This document shows, piece by piece, positions 41,301-59,276 of a stretch of 64,000 bases of DNA; position 1 is the stretch's first letter; each line of letters opens with the position of its first letter. The stretch covers positions 490,562 through 554,561 of the forward strand of contig CAVYML010000003.1 of the NCBI GenBank assembly GCA_963769605.1, read 5' to 3'. Origin of the DNA: Ignavibacteriota bacterium. GTDB taxonomy: Bacteria; Bacteroidota; Ignavibacteria; UBA10030. A program made the position numbers and the translations under genes. The notes beneath the pieces were generated by a model. The model did not search any database, was not told the DNA's origin, and saw only the letters and a list, made by a program, of their open reading frames with translations.

Positions 41301-41317
41301 TGCCACTCTTGTGCCAA
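41301..41317 (-). promoter_or_regulatory. Candidate sigma-54 (-24/-12) promoter for the T9SS-CTD gene.
   Basis: The minus strand reads TTGGCAC-AAGAG-TGGCA. The GG to GC spacing is correct, with one mismatch to TTGCA. It lies about 33 nt upstream of ATG 41268. Confidence 0.35.
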
Positions 41318-41690
41318 TGCAAAGAAGGGCTGCAAATCTGTTCGGCAAAAAAAAACGATCAATTCGGAGGAAAAAAAGAAAGATGCTGAAAGGACAAAAG
41401 AATCAGTACTGGACAAATTGTATTTTCGGCAAATCGGGTCAGATCATGAAGAGACGCAGACGAAAAGCCGGCCTCGCGGGAATTCGTATCTCAATTGTGT
41501 TAAATTACGCTGAGCAATTGCTGTCTAAAATTATTTGTTCGATGAAAACGGACATGGACATTTCTGTCCGGCTATTTTTAATGTTGCGCGAGGTGCGGTA
41601 AATTGTAAATTCACCAAAGAGGATCAGATTAATCAGAATTGAGGACGAACGAATTCGAAGCCGCGCATCATCTATGTCGGTAAAACATTC

Positions 41691-42676: not shown

Positions 42677-43237
42677 TTATACATTGATCATTGCTTTCAG
42701 TGATACCATTTTACCCCAATAGGAGCCTATTGATTCAGTTTTATATTGTTGGGCTTTTGAAAAACCGGAAAGCGCCGCCTGAATTCTATCTACGGATTGT
42801 TCGGCATGCGACAATTCAAGAATAACCGTTTTATTATTGAGAGCCGCTTTACGTGCTGCCTCCATAGAAAGCACAATGACTGCAAGAGGATTGTTGATAT
42901 GATGCTGTAAACCGCGCACGGTTTCCTGCATTGTCAAAAGTTGTGTTTGGTGGATCTCCAGTTCTTTTTCCGCGAGAATTCGCTGTTGTTCGCTTTCATA
43001 GAGTTTCGTTCGTACTTGAATGATTTTAACCAATGCCACGGAAAGAAACCACATAAAAGGAAGAGCGGAAAATATCGTAAAAATATCGTAAAAGCCGAGT
43101 GGGAACGCTTTTGCCTTCATAAAAAAATGAATGATTGAAACAAGCAAATAGGCATAGATCACAAAACCGGATAAGACGGCCGGGTAACGTGAAAAATAAT
43201 TATTTGCAATTTGTAAAAATCGACGTATAATTCGCAT
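42677..43237 (-). CDS. Membrane-anchored protein carrying only an NtrB-type DHp (HisKA) domain, with no ATPase domain.
   Basis: Two N-terminal TMs, a coiled coil, and the H-box GLQHHINNPLAVIVLSME (compare NtrB AHEIKNPL). It ends about 60 aa later with no HATPase_c. Confidence 0.6.
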   Translation of the reverse strand: MRIIRRFLQIANNYFSRYPAVLSGFVIYAYLLVSIIHFFMKAKAFPLGFYDIFTIFSALPFMWFLSVALVKIIQVRTKLYESEQQRILAEKELEIHQTQLLTMQETVRGLQHHINNPLAVIVLSMEAARKAALNNKTVILELSHAEQSVDRIQAALSGFSKAQQYKTESIGSYWGKMVSLKAMINV

Positions 43238-43473
43238 AACAATCCTCCTTTAAGGTGTTCTTTCCGGATGTCAACTAATTCTGTCGCAAATCCTATGCCA
43301 TCCATTCCGCCGCTTTAGATGTAACTGCATTCATTGCCGGCATTCGACGACGAACCGGGGATTTGATACTGAGGAGGAAAAATAGTAGTTTCATGCTGGA
43401 GGCAGGGACTTGCGTACTTGCTTTTCCGGGGTTGCAGGAGATATTTCTTTATTATTTTAAAGGGGACAAACGC

Positions 43474-44139
43474 ATGAAGAATAAGCAAACCAGAATATTG
43501 ATCGTGGATGATGACCCGGGCTACGCAGAAGGAATCTCCATCCTGCTTGAGTCTGAAGGTTATTTTTGCGATGCAGTGAATGATGCTAAGGCCGCAATAA
43601 AGAAACTTGACAACAAGAATTTTGAGATTCTTCTTGTCGATTGGCAAATGCCTGAAATGAGCGGTGTAGAGCTTATTGAGCGAATACGATCACATCCCGA
43701 TCACCGGCAAAAATATATCATCATGGTCTCCGGAAAGGGCGCTCTTGAAGATAAAGTTACTGGAATGGACGTAGGAGCTAATGATTATTTGGTCAAACCA
43801 TTTGAATCGCAAGAACTGCTCGCACGAATCAGAGCCGCAATTCGCATCCTCGAATTGGAGCAAGAGCTTATTGAACAGGAAAGAAGAAGTACTGTTCTTG
43901 AAATGGCTTTATCTATTACGGATAAAATCGGCAACCCGCTGTCTGCAGCGTGCTTTTTGCAGCAATATATTCATGAAAACGCACAAGATTATACAAAAGT
44001 CAAACAATCGATTGATGATTTAGGAACAGCGCTGCTTGAAATACAGGAACTCTTAAAAAAATATCAGTCGATAAAGAATCCGAAAACGATTCCAGCGGCT
44101 ATGGGCAAAAGAATGATCGATCCGGAAAGCGAAAAATAG
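43474..44139 (+). CDS. Response regulator: REC plus a C-terminal DHp-like helical domain in which the phospho-His position is Asp.
   Basis: ATG 43474 with an AAAGGGGA RBS. REC ILIVDDD...LVDWQMPEMSG...KP. The C-terminus LSITDKIGNPLSAACFL parallels the H-box of the 42677 protein. Confidence 0.7.
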   Translation: MKNKQTRILIVDDDPGYAEGISILLESEGYFCDAVNDAKAAIKKLDNKNFEILLVDWQMPEMSGVELIERIRSHPDHRQKYIIMVSGKGALEDKVTGMDVGANDYLVKPFESQELLARIRAAIRILELEQELIEQERRSTVLEMALSITDKIGNPLSAACFLQQYIHENAQDYTKVKQSIDDLGTALLEIQELLKKYQSIKNPKTIPAAMGKRMIDPESEK

Positions 44140-44215: not shown

Positions 44216-45583
44216 ATGAAACAAATCATTAAAGTCCTTGTCGTTGACGACGATGAATCATACCGTGAAGGATTAAAAAGCATTCTCGAAGCAGAAGGAT
44301 ATGAAGTAAAAACTGTCGTCGATGGTATTACGGCTATCAACATTATGCAGTCGAGTCAGTTCGATCTCATACTTCTCGATATTGTCATGCCGATTGTAAG
44401 CGGTATGGATGTATTGAAAAATATCAAGAACAGTTTCTATGAGTGCGAAGTAGTCATGCTGACGGGAGAAAATGATATTCATACGGCCGTTGAAAGCATC
44501 AAACTTGGCGCATACGATTATCTCCTTAAACCATGTTCGGGAACAGAAATTCTTAATACGATCAGCAGAGCGGTCGAGCGAAAACGACTTCTCTTGCAGA
44601 ATAAAGCGCTGAAGACAGAACTTGCAAGAGTTGCTGCATCCACACAGATTGTAACGCAGAATCCGGCAATGCTGGAAATACTGAATTTAGCCATGAAAGT
44701 CGCCCCGACCGATGCGACCGTATTGATTCAAGGGGAAAGCGGGACTGGAAAAGAACTTATTGCAAATTATATCCATAGCAACAGTCTGCGGAAAGAACAG
44801 CCGTTCGTTGTGCTCAATTGTGCTTCCATGCAGGAAACATTGCTTGAGAGCGAACTTTTTGGGCACGAAAAAGGTGCTTTTACGGATGCAAGCAAGGAAA
44901 AACAGGGCCTGGTAGAAATTGCCAATGGGGGAACACTCTTTCTTGATGAGATAGGAGAAATATCGCCTGTTATTCAACCGAAATTGCTGCGGTTTGTTCA
45001 GAGCGGAGAATACCGGAGGCTGGGAGGAACCCGGACATTGCAATCCGACGTAAGAATTTTATCTGCGACCAATAAAAATCTTATTGAGGAAGTGAAGCAG
45101 GGACGTTTTCGGGAAGATCTTTTATATCGGATGAACGTTTTTACTTTGGAATTGCCTCCTTTAAGGAATCACAAAGAAGACATTCCATTTCTTGTCGATA
45201 ATTTTTTAAAGCGGCGATATGGCAAAATAAATGGATGGGAAGTTGCAGAGGATGCGCTTACAGCGCTTCGTCAATATGAATGGCCCGGCAACGTGCGTGA
45301 ATTGGAGAATGTTATAGAGCGTGCGACTATCGTTGCCGATGAACGAACGATACAGTCTAAAGACCTGGCTGTTCTTCTGAGATCGCGGGTATTGAAAAAC
45401 GAATTTGCAGAATCAGGAGATATAGGAATTGGCAAGCTTATTGCACTAAGGGAAATAGAAAAAGTTCATATTTCAGGAGTTCTCAATGCGGTAGGATGGG
45501 ACAAGAATCTCGCGGCAAAAATTCTCGATATTAATATCAAAACACTTTATATAAGAATCCAGACTTATGGACTTACACATTAA
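44216..45583 (+). CDS. Sigma-54-dependent transcriptional activator of the NtrC family (REC-AAA+-HTH).
   Basis: REC, Walker A GESGTGKE, the GAFTDA (GAFTGA) motif, and a C-terminal Fis-type HTH. Confidence 0.9.
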   Translation: MKQIIKVLVVDDDESYREGLKSILEAEGYEVKTVVDGITAINIMQSSQFDLILLDIVMPIVSGMDVLKNIKNSFYECEVVMLTGENDIHTAVESIKLGAYDYLLKPCSGTEILNTISRAVERKRLLLQNKALKTELARVAASTQIVTQNPAMLEILNLAMKVAPTDATVLIQGESGTGKELIANYIHSNSLRKEQPFVVLNCASMQETLLESELFGHEKGAFTDASKEKQGLVEIANGGTLFLDEIGEISPVIQPKLLRFVQSGEYRRLGGTRTLQSDVRILSATNKNLIEEVKQGRFREDLLYRMNVFTLELPPLRNHKEDIPFLVDNFLKRRYGKINGWEVAEDALTALRQYEWPGNVRELENVIERATIVADERTIQSKDLAVLLRSRVLKNEFAESGDIGIGKLIALREIEKVHISGVLNAVGWDKNLAAKILDINIKTLYIRIQTYGLTH

Positions 45584-45678: not shown

Positions 45679-45727
45679 CATTTACCATTTACCATTTACT
45701 ATTTTCCATTTACTATTTACTATTCAC
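45679..45727. repeat. Seven tandem copies of a 7-bp unit (CATTTAC/TATTTAC) directly upstream of the 45739 gene.
   Basis: catttac catttac catttac tattttc catttac tatttac tattcac. Confidence 0.7.
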
Positions 45728-45738
45728 CTGAAATTATC

Positions 45739-46362
45739 ATGATTACAAAGCAGTCATTAAAAGTACTAATCGCTGAAGATCAGGAAGCCCTCATTCTGCT
45801 GATTCAGCTTCAATTAGAAAAGATCGGACACACAGTTATCGGCAAGGCAATAAATGGTCTTCAAGCGGTTGCACTTGCAGGTCAACTCCGGCCCGACGTG
45901 ATCTTAATGGATATCGAGATGCCCGAAATGGACGGCCTTGAAGCTGCTCGTCTGGTTCAGGAAAAGTATCCCTGTCCTGTAGTGCTGCTTACTTCACACG
46001 ATGAGCCTGAAATGATAAGACGCGCCAGTCAGATAGGTGTCGGAGCTTATCTCCTGAAACCTCCAAGAGCAGGGGAAATTGAACGCGCGATGATTATGGC
46101 GGTTGCACGGTTTGCCGATCTTACGGAACTGCGCCGCCTGAATAACGAATTGAAAATAGCTCTTGAGAATGTGAAGACATTAAGAGGGTTGCTGCCGATC
46201 TGTGCAAGCTGTAAAAAAATCCGGAACGATAAGGGATATTGGGAGGCCGTGGAAGGATATTTCACCAAACACAGCGAAGTCCAATTCTCTCACGGCATTT
46301 GTCCCGATTGCATCAAAAAATATTACCCGGAGTTTATACCGAAGATGTCAAAAAAAGATTAA
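45739..46362 (+). CDS. Response regulator: REC plus a C-terminal 4-Cys (CxxC...CxxC) zinc-ribbon-like domain.
   Basis: REC LIAEDQ...ILMDIEMPEMDG...KP. Tail LPICASCKKIRNDKGYWEAVEGYFTKHSEVQFSHGICPDC. Confidence 0.75.
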   Translation: MITKQSLKVLIAEDQEALILLIQLQLEKIGHTVIGKAINGLQAVALAGQLRPDVILMDIEMPEMDGLEAARLVQEKYPCPVVLLTSHDEPEMIRRASQIGVGAYLLKPPRAGEIERAMIMAVARFADLTELRRLNNELKIALENVKTLRGLLPICASCKKIRNDKGYWEAVEGYFTKHSEVQFSHGICPDCIKKYYPEFIPKMSKKD

Positions 46363-46406
46363 AGATATACCCGTAGCGCAATAATTCCGAAATTCTTCAT
46401 TGTAGT

Positions 46407-46434
46407 CCCGAAGACATTGTCAAATGTCTTCGGG
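46407..46434. promoter_or_regulatory. Perfect 12-bp inverted repeat (hairpin or palindrome) at the 5' edge of the duplicated kinase leader.
   Basis: cccgaagacatt-gtca-aatgtcttcggg. The homologous copy at 50643..50666 keeps the pairing through two compensatory changes. Confidence 0.45.
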
Positions 46435-46699
46435 ATGGTCGCGGATGCTGTAGCTTCGAAAAGATCTAATAATGTTTTCGGGATAGTTTCAGATGTTCCG
46501 AGATCATCCGCGACGATCCGTCGCGGCTACAGTGCGATCAATCCTATTTGGTGAAAATACAATTCTAAGTCAGTGTGATCAGCCCTCAAATTCCGGTTTT
46601 TTATCGGAATTCAATATATATCAGGCAAATCCTCCTCTTTCCCGCATTCTAAAGACTGGCATATCGTGTGTAAAATATACGGAAAGGCAGTAGAGAAAA
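46416..46699 (+). repeat. Copy 1 of the duplicated non-coding leader upstream of the paralogous hybrid kinases.
   Basis: About 80-85% identical to 50651..50982. Shared blocks: attgtcaaat, ggtcgcggatg(c/t)tgtagcttcgaaaa, caatcctatttggtgaaaatacaattctaa, taaagaNctggca. Confidence 0.65.
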
Positions 46700-49600
46700 A
46701 TGGAGGATATGCAAATGCGAAAAATCATAAAATTGCCGGCGCTGGTGACGATGACATCGGTCATTTCGATCGTCCTTTGGGAGCAGACAAATTTTTCAAG
46801 TCTTTTCAATGAGCATCTCTGGCTCCTAGGAGCCGCAGTGATCTTCCTTGCATTGATTATTTCTCCCCTTTTTGGATTCTTTTGGTACCGTCAACGTATG
46901 CGATACTACGGCCTCCAATATGAAATGGCACAAAAAGAAAATCGTATGCGCGATGAATTGAAGGAAAGCGAAAACAAATCAAAGGAAATACTTGAAGATG
47001 CCGCGGTGGGATATCATGAATTAGACACGAAAGGACGTATCGTCCAAACGAGCCGCGCTGAACTTGCGATGTTAGGATACACGCAGGATGAAATGCTGGG
47101 AGAATATATCTGGAAATTTGTCGAGGAAGAAGAGGCGCTGCAGATGAAAGTGCTCGCAATACTGAGTGGAAGGATGTCCCCATCTGGAGATGCGTACGAG
47201 CGAACATTCCGGCGGAAAGACGGAAATACTTTTTTTGTTTTAATGGAAGACCGTCTGCTGAGAGACGACGATGGAAAGATTATTGGCATTCGTACGACCA
47301 TCGAGAATATCAACATGCAGAAACAGGCAAAAGAAAGCATCCAGGAAAGCGAAGAGAAGTTCCGCGCGATCGCAACACTGGCAAACGATGCCATTCTTTT
47401 GATGGATGATGATGGTGCGATTTCAATGTGGAATCAAGCGGCAGAAAAAATCTTCGGTTATACGGAGGAAGAGGCGCTGGGTAAGACGCTTCATAAACTT
47501 TTAGTTCCGACCCAATACTACGAAAGTTCTACTCACGGATTCGAGCGCTTCCGGACGACGGGTGAAGGAAGTGCAATCGGTAAGACGCTCGAGCTGTCGG
47601 CGCTTCGGAAAGACGGCGCTGAATTTCCGATTTCACTTTCCCTCTCTTCTTTTAAACTGAACGGAAAGTGGAATGCGGTCGGCATTATTCGAGATATAAC
47701 CGAGCGCAGGCACGCGGAAGAGGAACTGCAGGAAAGCGAAAATAAATACCGATGCATTTTTGAAAATGTGCAGGATGTGTATTACGAGACATTGATCGAC
47801 GGCACGATACTCGAAATTAGTCCTTCCATCGGGTATATATCGAAAGGACAGTACAGCAGGAATGAGCTCATAGGAAAATCGGCAAACGAGTTTTATTCCA
47901 ATGATGATGAACGAGAGGGTCTCCTTTTGGCATTAAAGGAGCGCGGAAGTATTATGGATTTTGAAATAACTATGAAGAACCGGGATGGTTCATTCATTCC
48001 CTGTTCTATATCTGCAAAAATCCAATTCAATGCTCAAGGCGCTCCAGCAAAAATAATAGGCAGCATTCGAGATATTACTAAACGTAAACGGGTGGAAGAG
48101 GCATTGAAGGTAAACGAACTGCGTTTTCGCTCACTGTACGAAAATACCACAATCGGTCTTTATCGAACGACACCCGATGGAAATATACTTCTCGCAAATC
48201 CGGCATTAGTAAAAATGCTTGGCTATAAGTCTTTTCAAGACCTTGCCCAAAGAAACCTTGAAAAAGATGGTTTCGAACCTTCCTATCAGCGTAAAGAGTT
48301 TCTTGGAAAAATCGAAAGAGACGGCGAAGTGAAAAATCTTGAGTCAACATGGATAGATCAGGATGGCGCCACCATCGTTGTTCTGGAGAACGCTCGCGCT
48401 ATCCGGGATTCTCAAAATAAAACTATTTTTTACGATGGAACAGTCGAGGACATAACCAATTGGAAGCGAGCGGGAGAAGCATTGGCCAAAGAACATAATC
48501 TTCTTCAAATGCTCATGGATAATATTCCTGACGGTATTTATTTCAAGGATACGGAAAGCCGTTTTATTCAAGTTAATATGGCTCAGGCCCGTCATCTTGG
48601 TTTGACCAATCCCGAAGAAATGATAAACAAGACAGACTTCGATTTTTTCAGTGAAGAACACGCACGGCCGGCGTATGAAGATGAGCAGGAAATTATGCGC
48701 TCCGGAATACCAATAGTGGGAAAAGCGGAAAAAGAGATATGGCATGATGGGAAAGAAGGATGGGTTTCCAGCACCAAGATGCCTCTTCGCGATCATGAGG
48801 GGCAAATTATCGGAACATTCGGTTTATCGCGGGACATAACCGAGGCCAAACAGATACAGAACGCATTGAAAGAAGCCAAAGAAGCAGCAGAAGCCGCAGT
48901 CAAGGCAAAATCAGAATTTCTTGCCGTCATGAGTCATGAAATCCGCACGCCGATGAACGGCGTAATCGGCATGACCGACCTGCTTGAACATACCGAGCTT
49001 ACAACCGAACAAGCAGACTATGTCGAAACAATCCGTGTGAGCGGAGAGACATTGCTTGCCGTTATCAACGACATTCTCGATTTTTCTAAAATTGAAGCGA
49101 GCAAGATAGAATTAGAGGAAGAGCCGTTTGAATTGAATGTATGCATAGAAGAAGTTTTCGATCTCCTTGCGCCTCGATCGCGTCAGAAAAATTTGGACTT
49201 GTTGTACCGGATCGATCCAGATATCCCGCAGTTTATTGTGGGAGACCGGCTCCGTTTGCGCCAGATACTATATAACCTGGTCGGCAATGCTGTTAAATTT
49301 ACGGAAAAGGGAGAGATTATGATTTCTGTCGGATTGAATAGTCAGAACAATAAAGCGCTCGAGCTTCTCTTTGCAGTGAAAGATACTGGCATTGGAATTC
49401 CTATTCATAAACTTGAAAAATTATTTAAGCCTTTCTCACAGGCGGATTCATCCATCACGCGGAGGTACGGTGGTACGGGTCTTGGCCTTGCAATCAGCAT
49501 GCGCTTGGTGGAACTCATGGGCGGAAGCATCCGGGCGGAAAGCATAGAAGGAGAGGGTTCAAATTTCGTTTTTACAATGAAGACGTCTGTTCCTCAAAAC

Positions 49601-50542
49601 GAATTGAATATATCCAAATCGTATCTTCATGAGAACGAATTTGAACTTGCAAACAAACGGGTGCTCATTGTCGATGATAATAAAACTAATCTTCAGATCC
49701 TCAAAGAATTGTGTCAGGTATGGAAACTTATTCCACGTACTACTTCTTCGCCGGCTGAGGCCCTGAGATGGATCACGCGGGAAGATCCTTTCGATCTTGC
49801 GATCTTCGATCTTCAAATGCCTGAAATGGACGGTATTCAGCTTGCAACCGAAGTACGAAAGCAGCGGCCAAAAGAAGCGCTTCCATTTATTCTCTTTTCG
49901 TCTCTTGGAACGAATGTCACAGGATCGGATATACCCGCCGATCTATTCCAAAAACAGATATTTAAACCGGTAAAACAATCGCAGCTTTTTAATGCTATTC
50001 TTGAAGTTCTTGCCGGAAAAAAATTCCTGCAGGAAAGAAGAATGAAGACTGTGCAAAAAGAAGAGGGGATTGCTCTTGGACATGCACTGGTTAAAATATT
50101 GATTGCAGAAGACGGTTTCGTCAATAAAAAAATCCTTCTGCGGATGTTGAAACAAATCGGATGCTATGCAGATGTGGTGTCCGATGGACTGCAGGCAGTG
50201 AAAGCAGTTGAGGCCGTTCATTATGACATCGTCTTCATGGATGTGCACATGCCTGAAATGGACGGACTCGAAGCAACAAGGAAGATCGTCAATTCCCGTA
50301 TGGCAAACGAACGTCCGAAGATCATTGCGCTTACGGCGGATGCGATGTCCGGAGATAAAGAAAAGTGCATCGAAGCCGGAATGGACGATTACATCACCAA
50401 GCCGGTGCGGCTGGAGGAAGTCATTTCTGCGGTAAAGCGATGGGCTCCGGCTCAGGCAAATTTTACAGCGGAAAGTGATAAGAAAGAGAAACAATTCGCT
50501 GTCGGTGAGACTTGCACTTTTGGTCTTGCCAAAGCCGGATAA
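46700..50542 (+). CDS. Hybrid sensor kinase HK1: 2 TM, five PAS, HisKA, HATPase, two receivers.
   Basis: 1280 aa. H-box [14 protein letters not shown]. Two canonical C-terminal REC domains. Paralog of the 50983 gene, with two extra PAS modules. Confidence 0.9.
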   Translation: MEDMQMRKIIKLPALVTMTSVISIVLWEQTNFSSLFNEHLWLLGAAVIFLALIISPLFGFFWYRQRMRYYGLQYEMAQKENRMRDELKESENKSKEILEDAAVGYHELDTKGRIVQTSRAELAMLGYTQDEMLGEYIWKFVEEEEALQMKVLAILSGRMSPSGDAYERTFRRKDGNTFFVLMEDRLLRDDDGKIIGIRTTIENINMQKQAKESIQESEEKFRAIATLANDAILLMDDDGAISMWNQAAEKIFGYTEEEALGKTLHKLLVPTQYYESSTHGFERFRTTGEGSAIGKTLELSALRKDGAEFPISLSLSSFKLNGKWNAVGIIRDITERRHAEEELQESENKYRCIFENVQDVYYETLIDGTILEISPSIGYISKGQYSRNELIGKSANEFYSNDDEREGLLLALKERGSIMDFEITMKNRDGSFIPCSISAKIQFNAQGAPAKIIGSIRDITKRKRVEEALKVNELRFRSLYENTTIGLYRTTPDGNILLANPALVKMLGYKSFQDLAQRNLEKDGFEPSYQRKEFLGKIERDGEVKNLESTWIDQDGATIVVLENARAIRDSQNKTIFYDGTVEDITNWKRAGEALAKEHNLLQMLMDNIPDGIYFKDTESRFIQVNMAQARHLGLTNPEEMINKTDFDFFSEEHARPAYEDEQEIMRSGIPIVGKAEKEIWHDGKEGWVSSTKMPLRDHEGQIIGTFGLSRDITEAKQIQNALKEAKEAAEAAVKAKSEFLAVMSHEIRTPMNGVIGMTDLLEHTELTTEQADYVETIRVSGETLLAVINDILDFSKIEASKIELEEEPFELNVCIEEVFDLLAPRSRQKNLDLLYRIDPDIPQFIVGDRLRLRQILYNLVGNAVKFTEKGEIMISVGLNSQNNKALELLFAVKDTGIGIPIHKLEKLFKPFSQADSSITRRYGGTGLGLAISMRLVELMGGSIRAESIEGEGSNFVFTMKTSVPQNELNISKSYLHENEFELANKRVLIVDDNKTNLQILKELCQVWKLIPRTTSSPAEALRWITREDPFDLAIFDLQMPEMDGIQLATEVRKQRPKEALPFILFSSLGTNVTGSDIPADLFQKQIFKPVKQSQLFNAILEVLAGKKFLQERRMKTVQKEEGIALGHALVKILIAEDGFVNKKILLRMLKQIGCYADVVSDGLQAVKAVEAVHYDIVFMDVHMPEMDGLEATRKIVNSRMANERPKIIALTADAMSGDKEKCIEAGMDDYITKPVRLEEVISAVKRWAPAQANFTAESDKKEKQFAVGETCTFGLAKAG

Positions 50543-50553
50543 TTTTTAAAAGC

Positions 50554-50584
50554 CGCCTTTCCTCATGGAAGGACGGGCTTTAAA
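50554..50584 (+). terminator. Candidate terminator hairpin after HK1.
   Basis: gccgcctttcc-tcat-ggaaggacgggc (one bulge) followed by TTTAAAT. Confidence 0.3.
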
Positions 50585-50650
50585 TCCATCTTGTGTCCGC
50601 GACGTGCCTGCCTGCTGACGCAGTCGCGCAGGCAGGCCTGTCTCGAAAAT

Positions 50651-50982
50651 ATTGTCAAATATTATCCAAAGGTCGTCGCGGATGTTGTAGCTTCGAAAAC
50701 ATCTGATATTGTTTTCAGGATGGTCTCAGATGCTCACGAGATTATCCGCGACCACCCGCCAGAAGATGAAGCAGGTCGGGCAAGACGGTCGCGGATACAG
50801 AGTTATGTCTCGCGTGTTGCGTCAATCCTATTTGGTGAAAATACAATTCTAACATAGTGCGGTTTATAATTCAAATTCCGAATATTCATTGGAATTTAGC
50901 TGTTCCGGACAAATCTTTCTCTTATCCGATTTTAAAGATCTGGCACACCGTATGCAAAACATAAGAAAAGACTGTAGATCAA
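50651..50982 (+). repeat. Copy 2 of the duplicated leader.
   Basis: Homologous to 46416..46699, with an insertion of about 45 nt. Confidence 0.65.
50941..50956 (+). promoter_or_regulatory. Candidate sigma-54 promoter upstream of HK2.
   Basis: TGGCAC-ACCGT-ATGCA: one mismatch to TGGCAC-N5-TTGCA and correct spacing. It lies 27 nt upstream of ATG 50983. Confidence 0.4.
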
Positions 50983-53900
50983 ATGGAGGATCTGCATATG
51001 CGTAAAATTATAAAGATACTAGCACTCGTAACGGTCACGGCAATCGCTGCCATAGCACTCTTGGAGCAGACGAATATTATCAGTCTTTTCATTGAGCATC
51101 TCCGGCTCTCAGGAATCTTTGTGATCTCACTTGCACTGACTATCTCTCTCTTTTTCGTTTTCGTCTCGTATCGTCGACGCATACGATATTATCACCTGCA
51201 ATACGAAGCTGAAAAAAGGGAAAATCATGCGTATGAAGAGTTGAAGGAAAGCGAAAACAAATTCAGAGAAATATTTGAAGATGCACCAGTGGGATATCAC
51301 GAAATTGATGCAGAAGGCCGCATTGTACAAATGAACCGTACTGAACTTGCGATGTTAGGATATACGCAGGATGAAATGTTGGGAAAATATATATGGGAAT
51401 TTGTCGATGAAGAGGAAGCAATGCAGCAGTCAGTGCTCGCAGCACTGAGCGGGCGAATATCTTCCTCAGCAGATGCGTACGAACGAACATTCCGGCGGAA
51501 AGAAGGAGGAACATTATTTGTTCTCATGGAAGATCGCCTCTTAAGAGACGGCGATGGAGAGATAATTGGTATTCGTACGACCATTGAAAACATCAATGTG
51601 CAAAAACAGACAGAAGAGAGCATTCGGGAAAGTGAAAAAAAATACCGCAGAATCTTTGAAAATATTCAGGATGTCTACTATGAGACATTGATCGACGGTA
51701 CGATACTCGAAGTCAGCCCTTCTGTTGAGATTGTATCGAAAGGACAGTATCACAGAAATGAGCTTATAGGAAAGTCGATGTTCGATCTATATAATAATAT
51801 AGAAGAACGACATGGTCTCCTGTCGGCATTACAAGAGCGTGGAAGTGTTACGGATTACGAAATAACGCTTAAGAACCGGGACGGCTCGCAAATTCCATGT
51901 TCTGTTTCGGCAAAAATCCAATTCAATGCTCAAGGCAATCCGGAAAAAATCTTCGGAAGTATGCACGATATCACCGAACATATGCGAGCGGAAGAATCTC
52001 TGGCAAAAGAGCACAATTTACTTCAAACGCTCATGGACAACATCCCGGACGGTATCTATTTCAAAGATACAGAAAGCCGTTTTATTAAGGTCAACAAGGC
52101 TCAAGCCCGTCACTTACGTTTGACTAATCCTGAAGAAATGATAAACAAGTCGGATTTTGATTACTTCAGTGAAGAACATGCGCGTCCGGCGTATGAGGAT
52201 GAACAGGAAATTATGCGCTCAGGAGAGCCGATAGTAGGGAAAGAAGAAAAAGAGAAGTGGCTCGATGGGAAAGAAGGATGGGTCTCCAGCACAAAGATGC
52301 CTCTCCGTGATCACGAAGGACAAATTATCGGAACATTCGGCTTATCGCGTGACATCACCGATGCTAAACGGATGCAGAGTGCATTAAAAGAAGCCAAAGA
52401 AGCAGCGGAAGCTGCGGTCAAAGCAAAATCGGAATTTCTTGCCGTCATGAGCCATGAAATCCGCACGCCGATGAACGGCGTGATCGGCATGACCGACCTG
52501 CTTGAACGCACCGAACTTACTCCCGAACAAGCGGACTATGTCGATACAATTCGTGTAAGCGGAGAAACCTTACTCTCTGTCATCAACGACATTCTCGATT
52601 TTTCTAAAATTGAATCGAGCAAGATAGAATTAGAGGAAGAGCCGTTTGAATTAAACGTATGCATAGAAGAAGTATTCGATCTTCTTGCGCCCCGTTCACA
52701 GCAAAAGAATTTGGATCTTCTGTATCGGGTCGATCCGGAAATCCCCGAGTTTATTGTGGGGGACCGGCTGCGCTTGCGCCAGATTCTGTATAACCTTGTC
52801 GGTAACGCCATCAAATTCACGGAAAAAGGAGAGATTGTTGTTTCTGTCGGATTGAATCATCAGAACAAAAAAGAGATCGAGCTTCTCTTTGCGGTGAAAG
52901 ATACAGGTATTGGAATTCCTATCCATAAACTTGAAAAATTATTTAAGCCTTTCTCACAAGCGGATTCATCGATAACGCGAAGGTACGGCGGCACAGGACT
53001 TGGCCTGGCAATCAGCATGCGGTTAGTGGAACTCATGGGCGGAAGCATCCGTGCAGAAAGCGTAGAGGGAGAAGGCTCAACCTTTATTTTTATAATAAAG
53101 ACGACTATTCCTCAAAGCGAATTGAATATTTCAAAAACATTTCTTCATGAGAACGAATTTGAACTTGCTAACAAACGTGTGCTTATTGTCGATGATAACA
53201 AAACTAATCTTCAGATCCTCAAAGAATTGTGCCAGGTATGGAAACTCATCCCGCGCACTACTTCTTCGCCGGCTGAGGCTTTAAGATGGATCATGCGGGG
53301 AGATCCGTTCGATCTTGCAATCTTCGATCTTCAAATGCCGGAAATGGACGGTATTCAGCTTGCGACCGAAGTACGAAAACAGCGGCCAAAAGAAGTACTT
53401 CCATTTATTCTCTTTTCATCTCTTGGAACGAATGTCAAAGGATTGAACATACCCGTCGATCTCTTTCAGAAACAGATATTCAAACCGGTTAAACAATCGC
53501 AGCTCTTTGATGCTATTCTGAAAGCTCTTGCAGGAAAAGAATTACTGAGGGAAATAAGAGTTAAAGCTGTTCAAAAAGAATTGACAGAGAATACACCGAT
53601 CAAAATCTTGATTGCGGAAGACGGGATTGCCAATCAAAAGGTTCTCTTGCGGATGTTGAAACAAATCGGCTGCACCGCGGATGTTGTACAAAACGGATTG
53701 GAAGTGATAAAAGCAGTTGAAGCTGTTAGATATGATATCATCTTTATGGATGTGCATATGCCTGAAATGGACGGACTCGAAGCAACAAGGAAGATTGTTA
53801 ATTCCCATTTGGCAAGCGAGCGTCCGAAGATCATTGCGCTTACGGCAGATGCGATGTCCGGAGATAAAGAGAAGTGCATCGAATCCGGAATGGACGATTA

Positions 53901-54042
53901 CATTACCAAGCCGGTACGGTTGGAGGAAGTCATTTCCGCAGTGAAACGCTGGGCTCCGCTTCAGTCAAAACCTGCCGTGGACAATGATGGAAAAAAGAAA
54001 CAGCATGCTGTTGGTGAAACTCCTATTTTCTATCTGGCATGA
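50983..54042 (+). CDS. Hybrid sensor kinase HK2: 2 TM, three PAS, HisKA, HATPase, two receivers.
   Basis: 1019 aa. Collinear with HK1, with 85-90% nt identity over the C-terminal 2 kb. Confidence 0.9.
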
Positions 54043-54044
54043 GA

Positions 54045-54070
54045 AAGGGTTCGGAGCGATCCGAACCCTT
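54045..54070 (+). terminator. Perfect 11-bp stem hairpin directly after HK2 (candidate terminator, weak T-tract).
   Basis: aagggttcgga-gcga-tccgaaccctt. Confidence 0.4.
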
Positions 54071-54144
54071 ATCTTGTGAGATTCACTCTTCAAGGGAACG
54101 ATCTCTCAAGAAGCTTTAAACAGTGGCGTGTGGTTGAATCCAAT

Positions 54145-54280
54145 GATTTGCTTCCTTTAATGAATTTGCATAATTTCCTACCGTAATCATAAACTCAGAG
54201 AATACTCCTTGCAGTGTAGTTGTGGGGTTCATCATGATCTCTGGACTTCACTCTCCATTTCATACTAATCTGAGTTCACA
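54145..54280 (+). repeat. Conserved intergenic element, copy A, upstream of HK3.
   Basis: About 70% identical to 59565..59700. Shared core (a/g)ctcagagaatactcctt...ggggNtcat...atctct...tctgagtt, with a ctcaga...tctgag inverted repeat. Confidence 0.55.
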
Positions 54281-54479
54281 ATATTCAATATTCAATATAC
54301 AACACATTGAAAATTGTGCATGGCTTTAAAGAACAATTATATATATGAGGGAAAACACAGAATAAGGCATTTACCTATGTCGTAGAGCTGGTAGATTCCA
54401 CGGTCTTTGTGGAAGCATTAAAAAGATGGTGATTTTTGGACGGTTCTCAATTTACCACTACCCTGAAGGATGAAATCTA

Positions 54480-57400
54480 ATGAAAAACAAGTCTATCGAA
54501 ACAATACCGTTGAGAATCTTATTCCTTAACGACTCATCCCGGCGTGCTGAAATTATCAGGAAATTACTCATCAAAGCAGGATATGATCTCAAAGTGGATT
54601 GCACTGCTACCGAAAAAGAATATACGACGCTGCTTCGCAACAATAGGTATGATATTATTTTTTCCGATTTCAAACTTCCCGGATTTGATGCTTTCAAAGC
54701 CTTACGCTTGCATAATGATATCTGTCCGAGTGTTCCGTTTATTTGTATCTCTGGATCCATTGGTGAAGAACTCGCTGTTGAGTTGATAAAACAAGGAGCA
54801 GCAGATTACATTCCGAAGGCTCGACTAGCAAAACTTCCCGCGGCTGTAAAACATGCACTTGATGAAGCAGAGGGGAAAGAAAAACAACGGCAAGCAGAAA
54901 AAGCATTGAATGAAAGCGAAGAACGATTCCGTCAATTGTTTTTTGCTTCTTCTGATGCAATAATGTTGATTGATCCTTCTGACCTTTCCGTCGACTGGCC
55001 AATTGTTGACTGCAATAAAGCCGCGTGCCAGATGAACGGGTATACTCGAGAAGAATTAATTGGTAAGTCAATAAATAATCTCAACATCACTGAGGGAATG
55101 CCTCAAAAGCGAGCGACATACCTAGAAAACGTGAGACGAAAAGGTGTGTTGCATCTGGAAACTTTCCATCGCCATCACGATGGTCATATTTTCCCTATTA
55201 AGGTCTCAACGTCTATCATTACGTATAAGGAACATGAGTTAGTTTTAGAGATTGACAGCAATATTACTGAAGGCAAGCATGCGGAAGAGATCGTTCGGGA
55301 GTCTGAAGAAAGATTTCGAATGGTATTCGAAAATGTGTTTGACGGCATCAGCATTTACAACGAAGATCCCGATCCGTTCAAGAGAAAGCTCATTGATTGT
55401 AATGGACAGTATGCCGCCATGGCAGGCCGAAATCGTGAGGAACTGTTGCAGCACAGCAACACGAAAGAGCTCCAGATAACGCTTGATGAGACGGCAAATG
55501 ATAATCGTTTAGAATCGCTTGCTAAGGGAAAGGCATACCGGGGTCTCTTTTCATGGATCCGACCGGACGGAAAGGATAATATTATCGAATATGTGGGTGT
55601 GCCGGTTACATGGAAGGGTAAATCGTACTCAATCGGGATTGATCGCGACATCACCGAACGCAAACGAGCCGAAGAGGCTCTGCAATTGGAATATAATCGT
55701 CATAAACGGTTTATCGAATCAGATATTATCGGTATGACTATTATGGCCGCCGATGGAAAGATTATTGAAACAAACGATTATTATCTTAACATGCTCGGAT
55801 TTACACGCAAGGAATTCGAGTCCGGAAAAGTTAATTGGCGGGCGATAACACCGACCGAATGGCTGCCTTTAAACGATAAAGCGATGACGGAATTACGTGA
55901 ACGAGGAACTTGCCTGCATTATGAGAAGGAATATAGAAGGAAAGACGGAACGCGTATTCCGGTACTTGTTACATATACCTTACTTCCTGGACCGGAAGAA
56001 CAGATTGGTACATTTGTACTGGATTTAACCGAGCACAAACGGGTGGAGGAATCCTTACGAAAAAGTGAGGCGCAACTACGCGCCGTTCTCGATGCCACGC
56101 CATTTCCCATTGCATTAGTCGATGTTTTAGATAATAATATTGAATACTGGAGCCGCAGCGCTCTTACTCTTTTCGGACATACTGCACCCACCGCAACTGA
56201 GTGGTATCAGAAAGCATACCCGGATCCCGATTATCGGCGCAAGATTATAGATCGATGGAAAGTTTTTTTGGAAAAGGCGAAGATATCCGCTCAAGCGATC
56301 AACACTGGAGAATACCGGGTCACTTGCCGCGATGGATCGGTTCGTATTTGTGAACTCTATGCCGCTTTCGTGGCAGACAGACTTATTGTCACATTCAGTG
56401 ACATCACAGAACGCAAGCAGGCTGAAGAGGAGCTTATTAAGGAACAGAACCTGCTCAGAGCGCTTATGGATACTATGCCCGACCACATCTATTTTAAAGA
56501 TCTCGAAAGCCGTTTTATCAGGGTTAACAAAGCTGAAGCTGCAATATTTGGCATAAGCGATCCCGCCCAGGCTTTGGGTAAAACAGATTTTGACTTCTTC
56601 ACAGAGGAGCATGCCCGTCCGGCATTTGAGGCCGAGCAAGAAATCATAAAAACCGGACAACCCACGATGGGTTTAGAGGAAAGAGAAACATGGCCGGATG
56701 GCCGGGAAACCTGGGTTTCAACAACCAAAGTTCCACTTTATGATAAAGACGGGAAAATCACAGGTACTTTTGGCATCTCCAGAGATATTACTGATCATAA
56801 ACTGATGCAGGAGGAGCTGCGAAAAAATGAGGAACGCTTCCGAAAAATCTTTGAAGAGAGCCAAATCGGCGTCATGCTGTCGGATCCGGATTTCAGGTAT
56901 ATAAAGGTCAATCCTGCATTTTGCAATATGTTGGGCTACACGGCGAGTGAGCTTGCCTCTATGAGTTTCATCGATATCACTCATCCGGATGATATTGGCA
57001 AAGATATTGAGAATATGAGCAAATTGAAAATCGGGGAAATTCCATTCTATAGAACAGAAAAAAGATACCTCCGTAAAACTGGCGAGATTGTTTGGGTAAA
57101 CATCGTGGTAAGCTGTATACGCAATAATAATGGAACGCTTTTATATAATGTGGGCATGATTGAGAACATTACACAACGTAAGCAGGAAGAGCAGGAAATC
57201 AGCAGACTCAACCGTATCTATGCCGTTCTAAGCAATATCAATCAATTGATTGTGCGTGAAGGAGATAGACAGACATTGCTGAATGAAGCGTGCGAGATTG
57301 CCGTTCAAGACGGCGAATTCCAGATGTCGTGGGTTGGGATTTTTGACGCTGAAACAGATTCGTTCCAGCCTGTCGCCAGCGCGGCTAAAGAAAGCGGATA

Positions 57401-59276
57401 CCGGGAACAACTTCACACATCCATAGCTCAAATCATGGCTGGAAGAGAACCATTATGGAGGATTCTCATTGACGGTCAAATTATAATTTGCAACGATATT
57501 GAACATGATGATCGACTGAAATCTCAGCGGGAAAAGACGCTTGCCCTTGGCTATCGCTCTCTGGCTGCATTTCCGCTTCATATCGATGACGAAATCATAG
57601 GGGTCGTAAATTTCTATTCAAGCGAGAAAGACTTTTTTAATGAGGAGGAATTGAAACTTCTTGAAGAACTCGCGTCGGATGTTTCTTATGCGCTTCATTC
57701 CTTAGAATTAGAGGATCAACGGTTGCAAAGTGAAATAAAAATGAAGGAGAGTGAGAATAGATATCGCCGTATTTTTGAGAATGTGCAGGATGTATATTAT
57801 GAGGCATCGATCGACGGTACAATACTCGAAATAAGCCCTTCCATTGAGATGATATCGAAGAAACAATATAAAAGGGACGAACTCATAGGGAAGTCGATGA
57901 ACGAGTTTTATCCCAATAAAGGAGAACGGCAGGCTTTCCTATCGGCAATACAGGAGCGGGGGAGTGTTACGGATTACGAAGTAACGCTGAAAAACCGGGA
58001 CGGTTCAATCATTCCCTGTTCTATTTCAGCAAAATTACAATTTGATGCTCAAGGCAATCCGGAAAAAATCATAGGCAGTATCATTGATATCACCGAGCGC
58101 AAACTGTATCAGAGTCAACTGATGCAGAACCAAAAAGTACAAAGCATCGGCACATTAGCAGGAGGAATTGCACATGATTTTAACAATATACTCGGTATCA
58201 TTCTTGTGTTTACTTCTATTTTGGAACAGTCGGAAGGGGACAAAGAAAAGATATCAAAAAGTACGATAGCAATCAATCAAGCAGTTCATCGCGGTGCGGC
58301 GCTTGTCCGTCAGATTCTGACCTTTGCACGGCAAACGGGTGTATCGATGAAGCCGATGAGGATTCCTGATTTGATCCGCGAACTCGTTGTTATGCTCAAA
58401 GAAACATTTCCCGCAGTAATCGAATTTCAGACGAACGTAGAAATGGATATTCCTATCATCAATGCCGATCAATCACAAATGCATCAGGTTCTGCTGAACC
58501 TTTGCGTAAATGCGAGGGACGCAATGCCGAAAGGCGGTATCATTGGCATTGAAGTAAAAAAAGTCGCATCCGAAACAGTTATCCGGCAATTTCCCAAAGC
58601 CGAAAAAGGCCGCTATATCTCGATCAGCGTCTCTGATACGGGCACCGGCATGGATGAAGCAACAAAAAGTTGTATTTTCGATCCGTTCTTTACAACAAAA
58701 GAACAGGGGAAGGGAACCGGTCTGGGATTATCCGTTGTCTATGGCGTTATTCAGGAACATCATGGTTTTATCTCAGTTGAAAGCGAGATAGGACAGGGGA
58801 CGACATTTCACATGTATCTACCAGTACCACAAGAGGAAAAAAAGCTCAATGATATTGAAAAAGTTAAAACAGAAGCAACTCAGGGCGGATCTGAAACCAT
58901 CCTTTTTGTAGAAGATGAATTGCTTTTACGAGAGGTCGTACAATCGACGCTTGAATCGAACGGTTATAAGGTGCTCATTGCTGCCGATGGTCGTCAGGCT
59001 GTTGAAATCTACAAGAAGCAGTATAAAGATATTTCTCTTGTTCTCACCGATATGGGATTACCCAAGCTGACGGGAATAGATGAATATGCAATGCTCAAAG
59101 AAATAAATCCCAATGTCAAAGTCATTTTTGCAAGCGGCTTTATCTCATTCGATACAAGATCTGAACTCCTTAAAGAAGGAGTGAAAGGATTCATTCTGAA
59201 ACCGTACAATCTTAATGAAGTACTCGAGATGGTGAGAGAGATATTAAATGAGGATAAGAATAACAAGCCGCTCTAA
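54480..59276 (+). CDS. Hybrid sensor kinase HK3: N-terminal REC, multiple PAS, GAF, PAS, HisKA, HATPase, C-terminal REC.
   Basis: 1598 aa. H-box GIAHDFNNILGII. Several PAS modules are near-identical to those in HK1 and HK2. Confidence 0.9.
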   Translation: MKNKSIETIPLRILFLNDSSRRAEIIRKLLIKAGYDLKVDCTATEKEYTTLLRNNRYDIIFSDFKLPGFDAFKALRLHNDICPSVPFICISGSIGEELAVELIKQGAADYIPKARLAKLPAAVKHALDEAEGKEKQRQAEKALNESEERFRQLFFASSDAIMLIDPSDLSVDWPIVDCNKAACQMNGYTREELIGKSINNLNITEGMPQKRATYLENVRRKGVLHLETFHRHHDGHIFPIKVSTSIITYKEHELVLEIDSNITEGKHAEEIVRESEERFRMVFENVFDGISIYNEDPDPFKRKLIDCNGQYAAMAGRNREELLQHSNTKELQITLDETANDNRLESLAKGKAYRGLFSWIRPDGKDNIIEYVGVPVTWKGKSYSIGIDRDITERKRAEEALQLEYNRHKRFIESDIIGMTIMAADGKIIETNDYYLNMLGFTRKEFESGKVNWRAITPTEWLPLNDKAMTELRERGTCLHYEKEYRRKDGTRIPVLVTYTLLPGPEEQIGTFVLDLTEHKRVEESLRKSEAQLRAVLDATPFPIALVDVLDNNIEYWSRSALTLFGHTAPTATEWYQKAYPDPDYRRKIIDRWKVFLEKAKISAQAINTGEYRVTCRDGSVRICELYAAFVADRLIVTFSDITERKQAEEELIKEQNLLRALMDTMPDHIYFKDLESRFIRVNKAEAAIFGISDPAQALGKTDFDFFTEEHARPAFEAEQEIIKTGQPTMGLEERETWPDGRETWVSTTKVPLYDKDGKITGTFGISRDITDHKLMQEELRKNEERFRKIFEESQIGVMLSDPDFRYIKVNPAFCNMLGYTASELASMSFIDITHPDDIGKDIENMSKLKIGEIPFYRTEKRYLRKTGEIVWVNIVVSCIRNNNGTLLYNVGMIENITQRKQEEQEISRLNRIYAVLSNINQLIVREGDRQTLLNEACEIAVQDGEFQMSWVGIFDAETDSFQPVASAAKESGYREQLHTSIAQIMAGREPLWRILIDGQIIICNDIEHDDRLKSQREKTLALGYRSLAAFPLHIDDEIIGVVNFYSSEKDFFNEEELKLLEELASDVSYALHSLELEDQRLQSEIKMKESENRYRRIFENVQDVYYEASIDGTILEISPSIEMISKKQYKRDELIGKSMNEFYPNKGERQAFLSAIQERGSVTDYEVTLKNRDGSIIPCSISAKLQFDAQGNPEKIIGSIIDITERKLYQSQLMQNQKVQSIGTLAGGIAHDFNNILGIILVFTSILEQSEGDKEKISKSTIAINQAVHRGAALVRQILTFARQTGVSMKPMRIPDLIRELVVMLKETFPAVIEFQTNVEMDIPIINADQSQMHQVLLNLCVNARDAMPKGGIIGIEVKKVASETVIRQFPKAEKGRYISISVSDTGTGMDEATKSCIFDPFFTTKEQGKGTGLGLSVVYGVIQEHHGFISVESEIGQGTTFHMYLPVPQEEKKLNDIEKVKTEATQGGSETILFVEDELLLREVVQSTLESNGYKVLIAADGRQAVEIYKKQYKDISLVLTDMGLPKLTGIDEYAMLKEINPNVKVIFASGFISFDTRSELLKEGVKGFILKPYNLNEVLEMVREILNEDKNNKPL

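Follow-up and report, generated by a model that had tools for sequence, protein, structure and literature searches.

Two tandem hybrid histidine kinase genes of an Ignavibacteriota bacterium are probably old paralogues, each with a co-duplicated sigma-54 promoter-enhancer region

A 64,000-nt stretch of DNA from an Ignavibacteriota bacterium (contig CAVYML010000003.1; hereafter the window) carries four long kinase genes in a row on its plus strand, which we refer to as HK1, HK2, HK3, and HK4. Here, we analyzed HK1 and HK2, which encode hybrid histidine kinases, together with the ~300 nt of non-coding DNA that precede each of them (upstream regions, or leaders, 1 and 2). A preliminary description of this DNA had read the pair as the product of a recent tandem duplication. 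Our results suggest, with fairly good confidence, that HK1 and HK2 are instead old tandem paralogues, each a sigma-54-driven transcription unit of its own with a promoter-enhancer region that was duplicated along with the gene. Relatives and other assemblies are designated below by L numbers; syntenic loci of relatives were located through homologues of RR207, a 207-aa response regulator encoded upstream of HK1. Coordinates are collected in Table 1.

Tandem paralogues, their age, and their PAS modules

Pfam matched HisKA, HATPase_c, and two Response_reg domains in both HK1 and HK2, as expected of hybrid histidine kinases of the HisKA class, and both translations show the H-box SHEIRTPMN and DxxMPEMDG motifs. 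Each protein also has two hydrophobic segments at its N-terminus, and we read both as PAS-rich kinases anchored in the membrane. By blastn, 48466-50512 and 51984-54021 are 84.7% identical over 2047 nt, 46405-47365 and 50640-51648 are 72.6% identical, and 47731-48099 and 51627-51995 are 76.4% identical. A global protein alignment gave 70% identity for residues 1-219 of both proteins, 72% for residues 349-466 of HK1 and 220-337 of HK2, 89% for 593-1121 and 338-866, and 76% for 1125-1277 and 867-1019. The collinearity of the two genes, their shared transmembrane (TM) topology, PAS, HisKA, HATPase, and paired receiver domains, and the high identity of their 3' 2 kb, all noted in the preliminary description, are thus confirmed. 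Its observation that the non-coding DNA was copied as well also holds: the upstream regions can be aligned from 46405 and 50640 to the start codon, and 222/293 aligned positions are identical. The open reading frames (ORFs) are as first delimited; the start codons are more likely at 46715 and 50998 (MRKIIK), since GGAGGA lies 7 nt before both, homologous proteins begin at MRK or MHK, and one homologue has no upstream ATG. A terminator-like hairpin follows each kinase stop codon (50545..50584, plus strand, -15.9 kcal/mol, z -2.6, after HK1; 54041..54075, plus strand, -24 kcal/mol, z -5.0, after HK2), which suggests separate transcription units.

An assembly artefact was excluded as the source of the pair. 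Assemblies L001 and L002 carry both copies at 99.8-99.99% identity, and HK1 and HK2 differ from each other at 15-40% of positions, too much for a repeat that was collapsed or expanded in assembly. In L001, frameshifts in the kinase calls were traced to single-base indels; those in L001, L087, and L134 are most simply long-read assembly errors, L087 and L134 being judged by their likeness to L001. Collectively, these results support tandem paralogy of the kinases with their upstream regions.

A recent duplication should leave near-identity at synonymous and four-fold-degenerate sites, and this is not what we found. Synonymous divergence between HK1 and HK2 (dS, by the Nei-Gojobori method, NG86) is 0.45-1.33 in every segment. 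Non-synonymous divergence (dN) ranges from 0.05 in the kinase core to 0.26 in the TM region, and dN/dS from 0.04 to 0.27; neither gene is disrupted, and purifying selection acts on both. At four-fold-degenerate sites, 202/336 positions are identical (0.601), with values of 0.53-0.63 across all four segments. For comparison, the kinase of L130 has a four-fold identity of 0.577 with HK1 and 0.580 with HK2, and the neighboring activator and RR207 genes of the window both have 0.552 with those of L130; RR207 of the window and of the close strain L134 have 0.882. HK1 and HK2 have therefore diverged to the between-species level (0.55-0.58), and "recent" no longer describes their duplication. Sequencing errors are an unlikely source of the synonymous differences, since three assemblies agree. 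Since four-fold identity is only 0.60, the 85% identity of the 3' part of the kinases is due to purifying selection. Gene conversion was considered for the gradient in identity from 5' (72%) to 3' (85%) and rejected: four-fold identity is uniform and only dN varies, hence the gradient reflects differing protein constraint. By these measures, the duplication appears to be about as old as the split from the lineage of L130, whose orthologous proteins are ~80% identical. A scan of genome contigs with HK2 was unhelpful for dating, as all relatives that it found were at most 51% identical (Ignavibacteria, cyanobacteria, and others). The top genome matches were metagenome-assembled genomes (MAGs) of Ignavibacteria at 40-45%, and an exact look-up of the HK2 sequence returned no record.

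In a neighbor-joining tree of 974 ungapped columns, the L130 kinase was sister to HK1 in 296/300 bootstraps, and the outgroup distances of HK1, HK2, and the L130 kinase were equal. The protein tree conflicts by region, with PAS_E and REC1 alone favoring HK1 with HK2. This disagreement counts against the reading preferred here, and we take the node joining the three kinases as a near-trichotomy; at neutral sites, too, the three lineages are almost equally distant.

The same tree bears on an alternative history in which HK2, with HK3, was acquired as a diverged orthologue carrying its own upstream region and was placed beside HK1. HK2 branches outside HK1 and L130, its neutral divergence from HK1 is at the species level, and L130 has a single copy with no remnant of a second leader. 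Moreover, L134, which is 91.5% identical to the window over RR207-HK1, runs from HK1 directly to HK4 (4980-5300 of L134, corresponding to window 50606-59565) and lacks the 9-kb HK2-HK3 segment (window 50607-59564); kinase number is thus polymorphic among close relatives of one sample (ERZ25039473). However, L134 has kept the ~75 first nucleotides of leader 2, comprising a half-site and a hairpin unit, directly behind its HK1 terminator; this suggests that the segment was deleted there and not missing from the outset. Tandem leader-gene units also occur in the distant relatives L128, L098, and L136, and PAS_E and REC1 are closest between HK1 and HK2. We thus regard acquisition of HK2 as unlikely, and keep to an old tandem duplication.

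The two additional PAS modules of HK1 (PAS_B and PAS_D) lie where they had been placed, as 129 aa and 126 aa in the global protein alignment. The PAS module reported to recur in HK3 is PAS_C, for which all three pairings between HK1, HK2, and HK3 are 71-72% identical in amino acids (aa). Domain shuffling within the cluster is likewise supported by the presence of PAS_C in three kinases and of other modules at the same positions in relatives; for example, the L098 homologue has a module related to the first PAS of HK3 located after PAS_A (54%). That HK1 gained PAS_B and PAS_D is a different matter. Neither module has a close relative in the window (best matches 33% aa for PAS_B and 42% aa for PAS_D), hence there is no sign of a recent donor. 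The single kinase of L130 (1275-1280 aa, by start choice) has the full N-A-B-C-D-E-kinase-REC1-REC2 layout, with PAS_B 84% and PAS_D 81% identical in aa to those of HK1, and PAS_B of L134 is 93% identical. Five-PAS orthologues of HK1 thus exist in three lineages (L130, L134, and L087), of which L130 groups with HK1. L128 has more distant paralogues, with five and with six PAS modules, and the module directly before PAS_C in one of them (L128a) matches PAS_B best, at 38%. The three-PAS layout of HK2 is thus the exception. Loss of PAS_B and PAS_D from HK2 appears at least as likely as gain by HK1, and in our view more probable; it most probably proceeded through in-frame deletions at inter-module linkers. 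What weighs against this polarity is its basis, parsimony and one weak outgroup match.

Two further rearrangements were noted in relatives. The gene after the HK1 orthologue of L130 (15550-20624) encodes a 1742-aa mosaic of the HK4 N-terminal region, PAS_E-like modules, and the HK3 kinase end. L098 (711-1353), L128 (14866-15523), and L136 (10795-11445) contain a stand-alone gene for a receiver (158-163 aa) that shares 60-76% identity with REC2 of HK1 and HK2. This gene has its own kinase-type upstream region, with the box and sigma-54 promoter described below, and looks like a kinase copy that has shrunk to its last domain.

Probable sigma-54 promoters, a conserved box, and a candidate activator

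Three footprints are common to all aligned homologous upstream regions: a -24/-12 element, a box, and the ribosome-binding site with the start codon. The first has the form of a sigma-54 promoter (TGGCAC-N5-TTGCW, with GG and GC ten positions apart), seen in leader 2 as TGGCACACCGTATGCA at 50941. Ten leaders, drawn from at least six lineages, keep the pattern TGGCAY-N5-NTGCA ~45 nt ahead of the start codon, while the flanks diverge. These are leader 2 and the leaders of L087, L134, L130, L135, L128 (two copies), L098, L089, and L090; in all eight relatives it reads TGGCAT-ATCGT-(A/G)TGCA, with ATGTA in one L098 copy. Neither upstream region yielded a plus-strand site of the sigma-70 type.

The box has the family consensus ATCCTnTTTGGTGAAwwTACAATT (16 instances) and, in all of the kinase leaders, precedes the promoter by 107-111 nt. 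Five matches to the box pattern occur in the window, against 0.44 expected by chance. A metagenome scan with this pattern gave no hits. A scan with the promoter pattern gave 37, at least 30 of them one shared human-gut sequence and a few unrelated singletons; the sole true homologue was L098. Measured against the neutral identity of 0.60, the whole upstream region (222/293, P about 1e-8), the inverted-repeat element at 46436-46519 (72/84, P 3e-7), and the 31-nt block of the box (31/31, P 1e-7) are all in excess, which indicates that the upstream DNA is under constraint.

Other readings of this DNA were tried. A minus-strand sigma-70 promoter in the box (46589..46562 and 50874..50846) was rejected, its -35 part not being kept in L089 or L098. 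Inspected by eye, the box matched neither a Bacteroidetes-type -33/-7 promoter nor an IHF site convincingly. We also dismissed a small leader ORF that would start with the ATG at 46434: this codon is not kept, and a 1-nt indel puts the two copies in different frames.

With a conserved sigma-54-type promoter only ~45 nt ahead of the ATG, the bulk of the 300 nt is upstream of the probable transcription start, so the reading of this DNA as a transcribed leader is not supported. Transcription is predicted to start near 46683 and 50967, placing the box at about -124. We infer that the duplicated DNA is mainly a promoter-enhancer region rather than mainly a transcribed leader, and we conclude from the sequence that each kinase is probably an independent sigma-54-dependent transcription unit.

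The candidate activator of these promoters is encoded just upstream, at 44216..45583. It matched Sigma54_activat at E 2.7e-68 and the AtoC and NtrC models end to end, and its gene is syntenic and adjacent in all relatives' loci. Its sigma-54 activator loop reads GAFTDA, which is listed among the loop variants expected to keep the activity of bacterial enhancer-binding proteins (bEBPs; PMC4641369). The box is also shared with a neighboring gene for a cargo protein of the type IX secretion system (T9SS), where it stands 117-118 nt upstream of a sigma-54-like promoter conserved in two lineages; the arrangement is kept in L130 and partly in L128 and L087. The box is, for this reason, the best candidate for the binding site of the activator. 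We propose that the local kinase network would phosphorylate the NtrC-type activator, which would then bind upstream and open the sigma-54 promoters of the two kinase genes and of the cargo gene, so that kinase abundance would come under a feedback loop.

Similar motifs elsewhere in the window were also recorded. A sigma-54-like element, TGGCAT-AGGAT-TTGCG, lies at 43286-43300 on the minus strand, 49 nt before a minus-strand gene (42677..43237) for a 186-aa protein with weak HisKA similarity; no box was seen upstream of it. Exact plus-strand matches to TGGCAC-N5-TTGC at 5462-5477 and 21317-21332, one intergenic without a near downstream plus-strand gene and one inside a SprA-like ORF, are probably due to chance. 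A palindrome, AATTCCG-N9-CGGAATT, lies between box and promoter (46589-46611 and 50872-50894); it is kept in the clade of the window (L087, L134, and partly L130) and not in L098 or L089.

A palindrome array upstream of the kinases

Upstream of the box, both leaders hold an array of palindromes. The 7-mer GTCGCGGAT occurs at 46438 (+), 46506 (-), and 46520 (+) and at 50595 (-), 50675 (+), 50744 (-), and 50788 (+). These are 7 of its 8 occurrences in the window, the other being a coding-region hit. The direct repeats of GTCGCGGAT pointed out in the preliminary description are real; an inverted copy lies between them, and the repeats are half-sites of a 19-bp palindrome, CCGCGAC-N5-GTCGCGG, often followed by CTACAG. 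This palindrome is intact at 46508-46526, once in L130, and four times in L135, and is split at its center by insertions in L087 (P2), L134, and leader 2. A 24-bp palindrome of the general form CGAARACAT-N6-ATGTYTTCG is present twice per leader, 48-50 bp apart. The pair recurs in leader 2, L134, and L087 and, allowing up to two mismatches, nowhere else in 1.75 Mb of DNA. A palindrome related to the 24-bp motif, CGGAAATAT-N6-ATGTTTCCG, was seen upstream of the activator gene of L130 (8263-8286) and in L131-L133.

The first of the 24-bp palindromes forms the core of the boundary hairpin, whose stem had been taken to be under selection on account of compensatory changes. Upon closer inspection, three pairs did change from G-C to A-T on both sides between copy 1 and copy 2, but three others are broken, and the predicted stability falls from -22.8 kcal/mol (z -7.4) to an insignificant -4.1 kcal/mol (z -1.6). 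Moreover, the hairpin is missing at that position in the orthologous L087 leader. Selection on the stem is therefore not supported. Symmetrical G-C to A-T changes are as expected of palindromic protein half-sites or of template switching within a palindrome, and the observations argue for the palindromes acting as double-stranded DNA sites rather than as an RNA stem. The array would probably hold sites for a further dimeric DNA-binding regulator.

The array also differs in orientation between lineages. The core of the L134 element matches the reverse complement of both window cores and of L087 (53/61, 52/60, and 54/62 identical) and aligns poorly forwards; the core of L135 is in the forward orientation. 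In L134, the element is preceded by the exact reverse complement of the spacer that follows it in leader 2, and the hairpin unit is at the opposite end of the module. Since core, spacer, and hairpin unit are all reversed, the whole TTGTAG-CTACAG module has been flipped in L134. L087 has its hairpin unit on the L134 side and its core in the window orientation, which implies a second inversion event. The outer repeats of the module are TGTAG(CCGCGAC) and (GTCGCGG)CTACA, so that inverted repeats flank a segment seen in both orientations, between lineages only; the six contigs of the window strain showed no orientation differences. The many inverted repeats would make the array prone to inversion, insertion, and deletion, and such rearrangements would be tolerated because the sites work in either orientation. 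Enhancers are known to do so.

We weighed two readings in which the upstream DNA acts as RNA. In one, read-through from RR207 or HK1 would transcribe the region, giving an attenuator with alternative pairings or a terminator or insulator stack of hairpins. The four complementary arms can indeed pair in alternative ways (1 with 2 and 3 with 4, or 2 with 3), the 87-nt element folds at -35.5 and -34.4 kcal/mol (z about -4.2), and the stretch from the upstream stop codon to the box always contains at least two strong hairpins. However, a cis-regulatory leader RNA should show covarying structure on a fixed strand inside a transcript, and among five homologues of the 78-nt inverted-repeat element 0/29 predicted pairs are compensatory (covariation term +1.08). 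In the core, conservation is equally high at unpaired and paired positions, the hairpins are not followed by U-tracts, and the inversion in L134 would give the complementary RNA, yet the sequence is conserved in either orientation, which disfavors an RNA function. Rfam, at gathering and permissive thresholds, returned two tRNAs elsewhere in the window plus noise and no match in the leader. In our estimate, the probability of this reading is slight. The other is that of the preliminary description as a whole: a recent duplication with a transcribed leader, PAS gain in HK1, and a compensatory RNA stem at the boundary. It accounts for the collinear copies with their near-85% identical 3' parts and for the three hairpin pairs changed on both sides. 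It is contradicted by the neutral-site divergence, the five-PAS orthologues, the loss of stability and absence of the hairpin, and the conserved sigma-54 promoter downstream of the supposed leader, and we consider it extremely improbable.

Two further readings treat the palindromes as mobile or switching DNA. The units might be selfish repeats of the REP/REPIN or miniature inverted-repeat transposable element (MITE) type that lodged upstream of an ancestral kinase and have no regulatory role. As in REP, BIME, and REPIN elements, a GTAG head is joined to a short G+C-rich imperfect palindrome (a 7-bp stem and a 5-nt loop; CTGTAG-CCGCGAC-N5-GTCGCGG in the window, L130, L134, and L135), the units are clustered between genes in alternating orientations, upstream of RR207 too in L130 and L135, and their copy number and spacers vary among close lineages. 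Unlike REP elements, they were not seen in many dispersed copies or with a RAYT partner: in all DNA examined, they occurred only in the RR207-kinase neighborhood (within the window in the two kinase regions, the one coding hit aside, and within 20-kb stretches of relatives around RR207 and the kinase), no RAYT or transposase gene was found in the window, and the element is 86% identical between the old paralogues against a neutral 60%, and thus constrained. We find the selfish-repeat reading distinctly unlikely. The modules might instead be a programmed, invertible or shufflon-like switch (46400-46532 and 50595-50800), with a site-specific recombinase flipping segments and so altering enhancer geometry and kinase expression. 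As in invertons and shufflons, inverted repeats flank short intergenic segments just upstream of the regulated gene and related strains differ in orientation. L134 has the module inverted as a whole, lineages that are 87-95% identical differ by two or more inversion events (L087 differing again), the leader 2 spacer is reverse-complemented at the other palindrome in L134, and the outer 12-13-bp inverted repeats are kept as far as L130 and L135 (CTGTAG-CCGCGAC / GTCGCGG-CTACAG). Unlike in invertons, orientation appears to be fixed within a lineage, and a single orientation is shared by all contigs of the window strain. The window ORFs that were scanned showed no domain of a recombinase or transposase, no promoter was detected inside the module, and at about 60-200 bp the segments are short for inversion by a recombinase. 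Short-read contig L005, which ends at 46511 inside an arm, was considered as a hint of heterogeneity and set aside. With one orientation among the contigs of the window strain and no recombinase in the window, spontaneous inversion between short inverted repeats is sufficient and the more economical account. Small hairpin-loop inversions in chloroplast spacers, which flip recurrently through short inverted repeats without a dedicated enzyme, are a known precedent; unlike those, the segment here lies in a bacterial enhancer region and is itself constrained. A programmed switch is accordingly very unlikely in our judgment, and we give only a slim chance to its extension, a recombination-driven, multi-segment miniature shufflon on the enhancer whose arrangements would set the expression levels of the paralogous kinases within a population.

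Old paralogues with sigma-54-driven, co-duplicated promoter-enhancer regions remain the reading that we prefer, and several observations count against it. No rpoN gene is present in the window (no RpoN-box match), so sigma-54 dependence is inferred from the activator. Leader 1 keeps the GG and reads GTGTA, with T for C at -12, where orthologues have ATGCA or GTGCA; in the window strain, the HK1 promoter may have lost strength or be under another form of control. The box shows no obvious dyad, an uncommon feature in a site of the NtrC type, and it could bind a DNA-bending or other protein. The palindromes, which are more like classical activator sites, are missing from the cargo gene and from the leaders of L098, L128, and L136. 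Lastly, both 19-bp palindromes of leader 2 are split by insertions while their half-sites are perfectly kept, which a simple dimer-operator model does not predict.

Neighboring genes and known systems

Table 1. Genes, modules, and regulatory features of the kinase locus (window coordinates).
Feature	Position	Strand	Remarks
HK1	ORF 46700..50542	+	1280 aa; probable start 46715; 2 TM, PAS A-B-C-D-E, HisKA, HATPase_c, REC1, REC2
HK2	ORF 50983..54042	+	1019 aa; probable start 50998; 2 TM, PAS A-C-E, HisKA, HATPase_c, REC1, REC2
HK3	54480..59276	+	
HK4	59719..63057	+	
PAS_B	47357..47743	+	HK1 aa 220-348 (129 aa); absent from HK2
PAS_D	48098..48475	+	HK1 aa 467-592 (126 aa); absent from HK2
PAS_C copy within HK3	57738..58103	+	72% aa to HK1 and HK2 copies
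-24/-12 element, HK1	46657..46672	+	TGGCAT-ATCGT-GTGTA
-24/-12 element, HK2	50941..50956	+	TGGCAC-ACCGT-ATGCA; 110 nt downstream of box
Conserved box, upstream region 1	46538..46568	+	TTTGG start (46547) 110 nt upstream of TGGCA
Conserved box, upstream region 2	50822..50852	+	31/31 identical to 46538-46568
Palindrome module 1	46400..46532		bounded by TTGTAG ... CTACAG
Boundary hairpin	46406..46435		13-14 bp stem, -22.8 kcal/mol; core 46409-46432 is the 24-bp palindrome CGAAGACAT-N6-ATGTCTTCG
Inverted-repeat element 1	46438..46514		77 nt; arms GTCGCGGATG / CATCCGCGAC round conserved core
Second 24-bp palindrome	46457-46480		within core of inverted-repeat element 1
19-bp palindrome	46508..46526		CCGCGAC-GATCC-GTCGCGG; recurs 1-4 times per upstream region in relatives
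Palindrome module 2	50595..50800		
Module 2, 5' end	50595-50667		half-site 50595-50603; G+C-rich hairpin 50604-50640; weak 24-bp palindrome copy 50644-50667
Module 2, rest	50675-50800		inverted-repeat element 50675-50752 (second palindrome 50694-50717); 35-nt spacer; half-site 50788-50800
Response regulator	43393..44139		upstream of kinase cluster
NtrC/AtoC-type bEBP (candidate activator)	44216..45583	+	REC, sigma-54 AAA+ (Sigma54_activat), HTH_8
RR207	45739..46362		207-aa response regulator upstream of HK1
T9SS-cargo gene	40153..41268	-	
T9SS-cargo gene, upstream	41302..41618	-	promoter TGGCAC-AAGAG-TGGCA 41316..41302; boxes 41433..41416 and 41618..41601

The window also encodes T9SS markers, namely a Por_Secre_tail protein and SprA, which, like the matches of HK2 to Ignavibacteria MAGs, fit an uncultured member of the Ignavibacteriota/Bacteroidota group. 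An identical copy of the RR207 protein is on record from a Bacteroidota MAG, and 1837 homologues were found at E<=1e-30, mainly in Ignavibacteriota and Bacteroidota metagenomes. Its C-terminus (window 46150-46362) holds a Cys/His-rich motif, LPICASCKKIRNDKGYW...FSHGICPDC. Outside the receiver domain RR207 has no Pfam or NCBIfam match, and the motif may represent a zinc-binding output domain not described before. Between the activator gene and RR207, the spacer contains a 7-nt tandem repeat, CCATTTA (7.3 copies, 45678-45728); L134 has a longer, different run there, and L130 and L135 have a GTAG-palindrome element instead. Further downstream, the upstream regions of HK3 and HK4 share a conserved element of ~60 nt (54189-54247 and 59610-59668, 78% identical; ...AAGCTCAGAGAATACTCCTT.TAGTG...), also found in L134 (5343-5403). 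It points to a second piece of regulatory DNA that was duplicated inside the cluster, one in which no sigma-54-like motif was seen.

The proposed circuit resembles NtrC-family sigma-54 systems. It has the -24 GG/-12 GC element at canonical spacing, as at glnAp2 with NtrB/NtrC and in AtoSC and ZraSR, conserved upstream elements 100-250 bp away, an adjacent gene for a REC-AAA+-HTH_8 activator, and a feedback loop aimed at the signaling genes of its own cluster. In those systems paired palindromic sites are expected upstream, whereas here conservation is strongest in a 24-nt box that has no obvious dyad, and such palindromes as occur are restricted to particular lineages. The proposed circuit also differs in its activator loop, GAFTDA rather than GAFTGA, in the T at -12 of the HK1 promoter, and in its host, an uncultured Ignavibacteriota/Bacteroidota MAG. 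The kinases themselves resemble the expansions of PAS-rich hybrid kinases in many environmental bacteria, with tandem paralogues, a conserved kinase-receiver core, fast-evolving N-terminal sensor arrays, and gain, loss, and exchange of whole modules at linker boundaries. Unlike in other such expansions, upstream regulatory DNA was co-duplicated here, and the constraint on it has lasted as long as that on the coding sequence.

Paralogous hybrid kinases with shuffled PAS modules and co-duplicated regulatory DNA are an arrangement of a known kind, and ordinary biology. The inversion-prone palindrome array is the only unusual feature, a small and mildly interesting curiosity that would matter more only if the inversion were programmed. 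The nucleotide identity of the kinase core reflects purifying selection, which corrects an appealing reading of recency, and the locus illustrates that regulatory DNA can be copied along with a gene and remain under constraint for an equally long time. To our knowledge, almost nothing is known of sigma-54 regulation in this uncultured Ignavibacteriota-like lineage, for which the predicted sigma-54 promoter, the box, and the two palindrome classes provide a testable cis-regulatory map.

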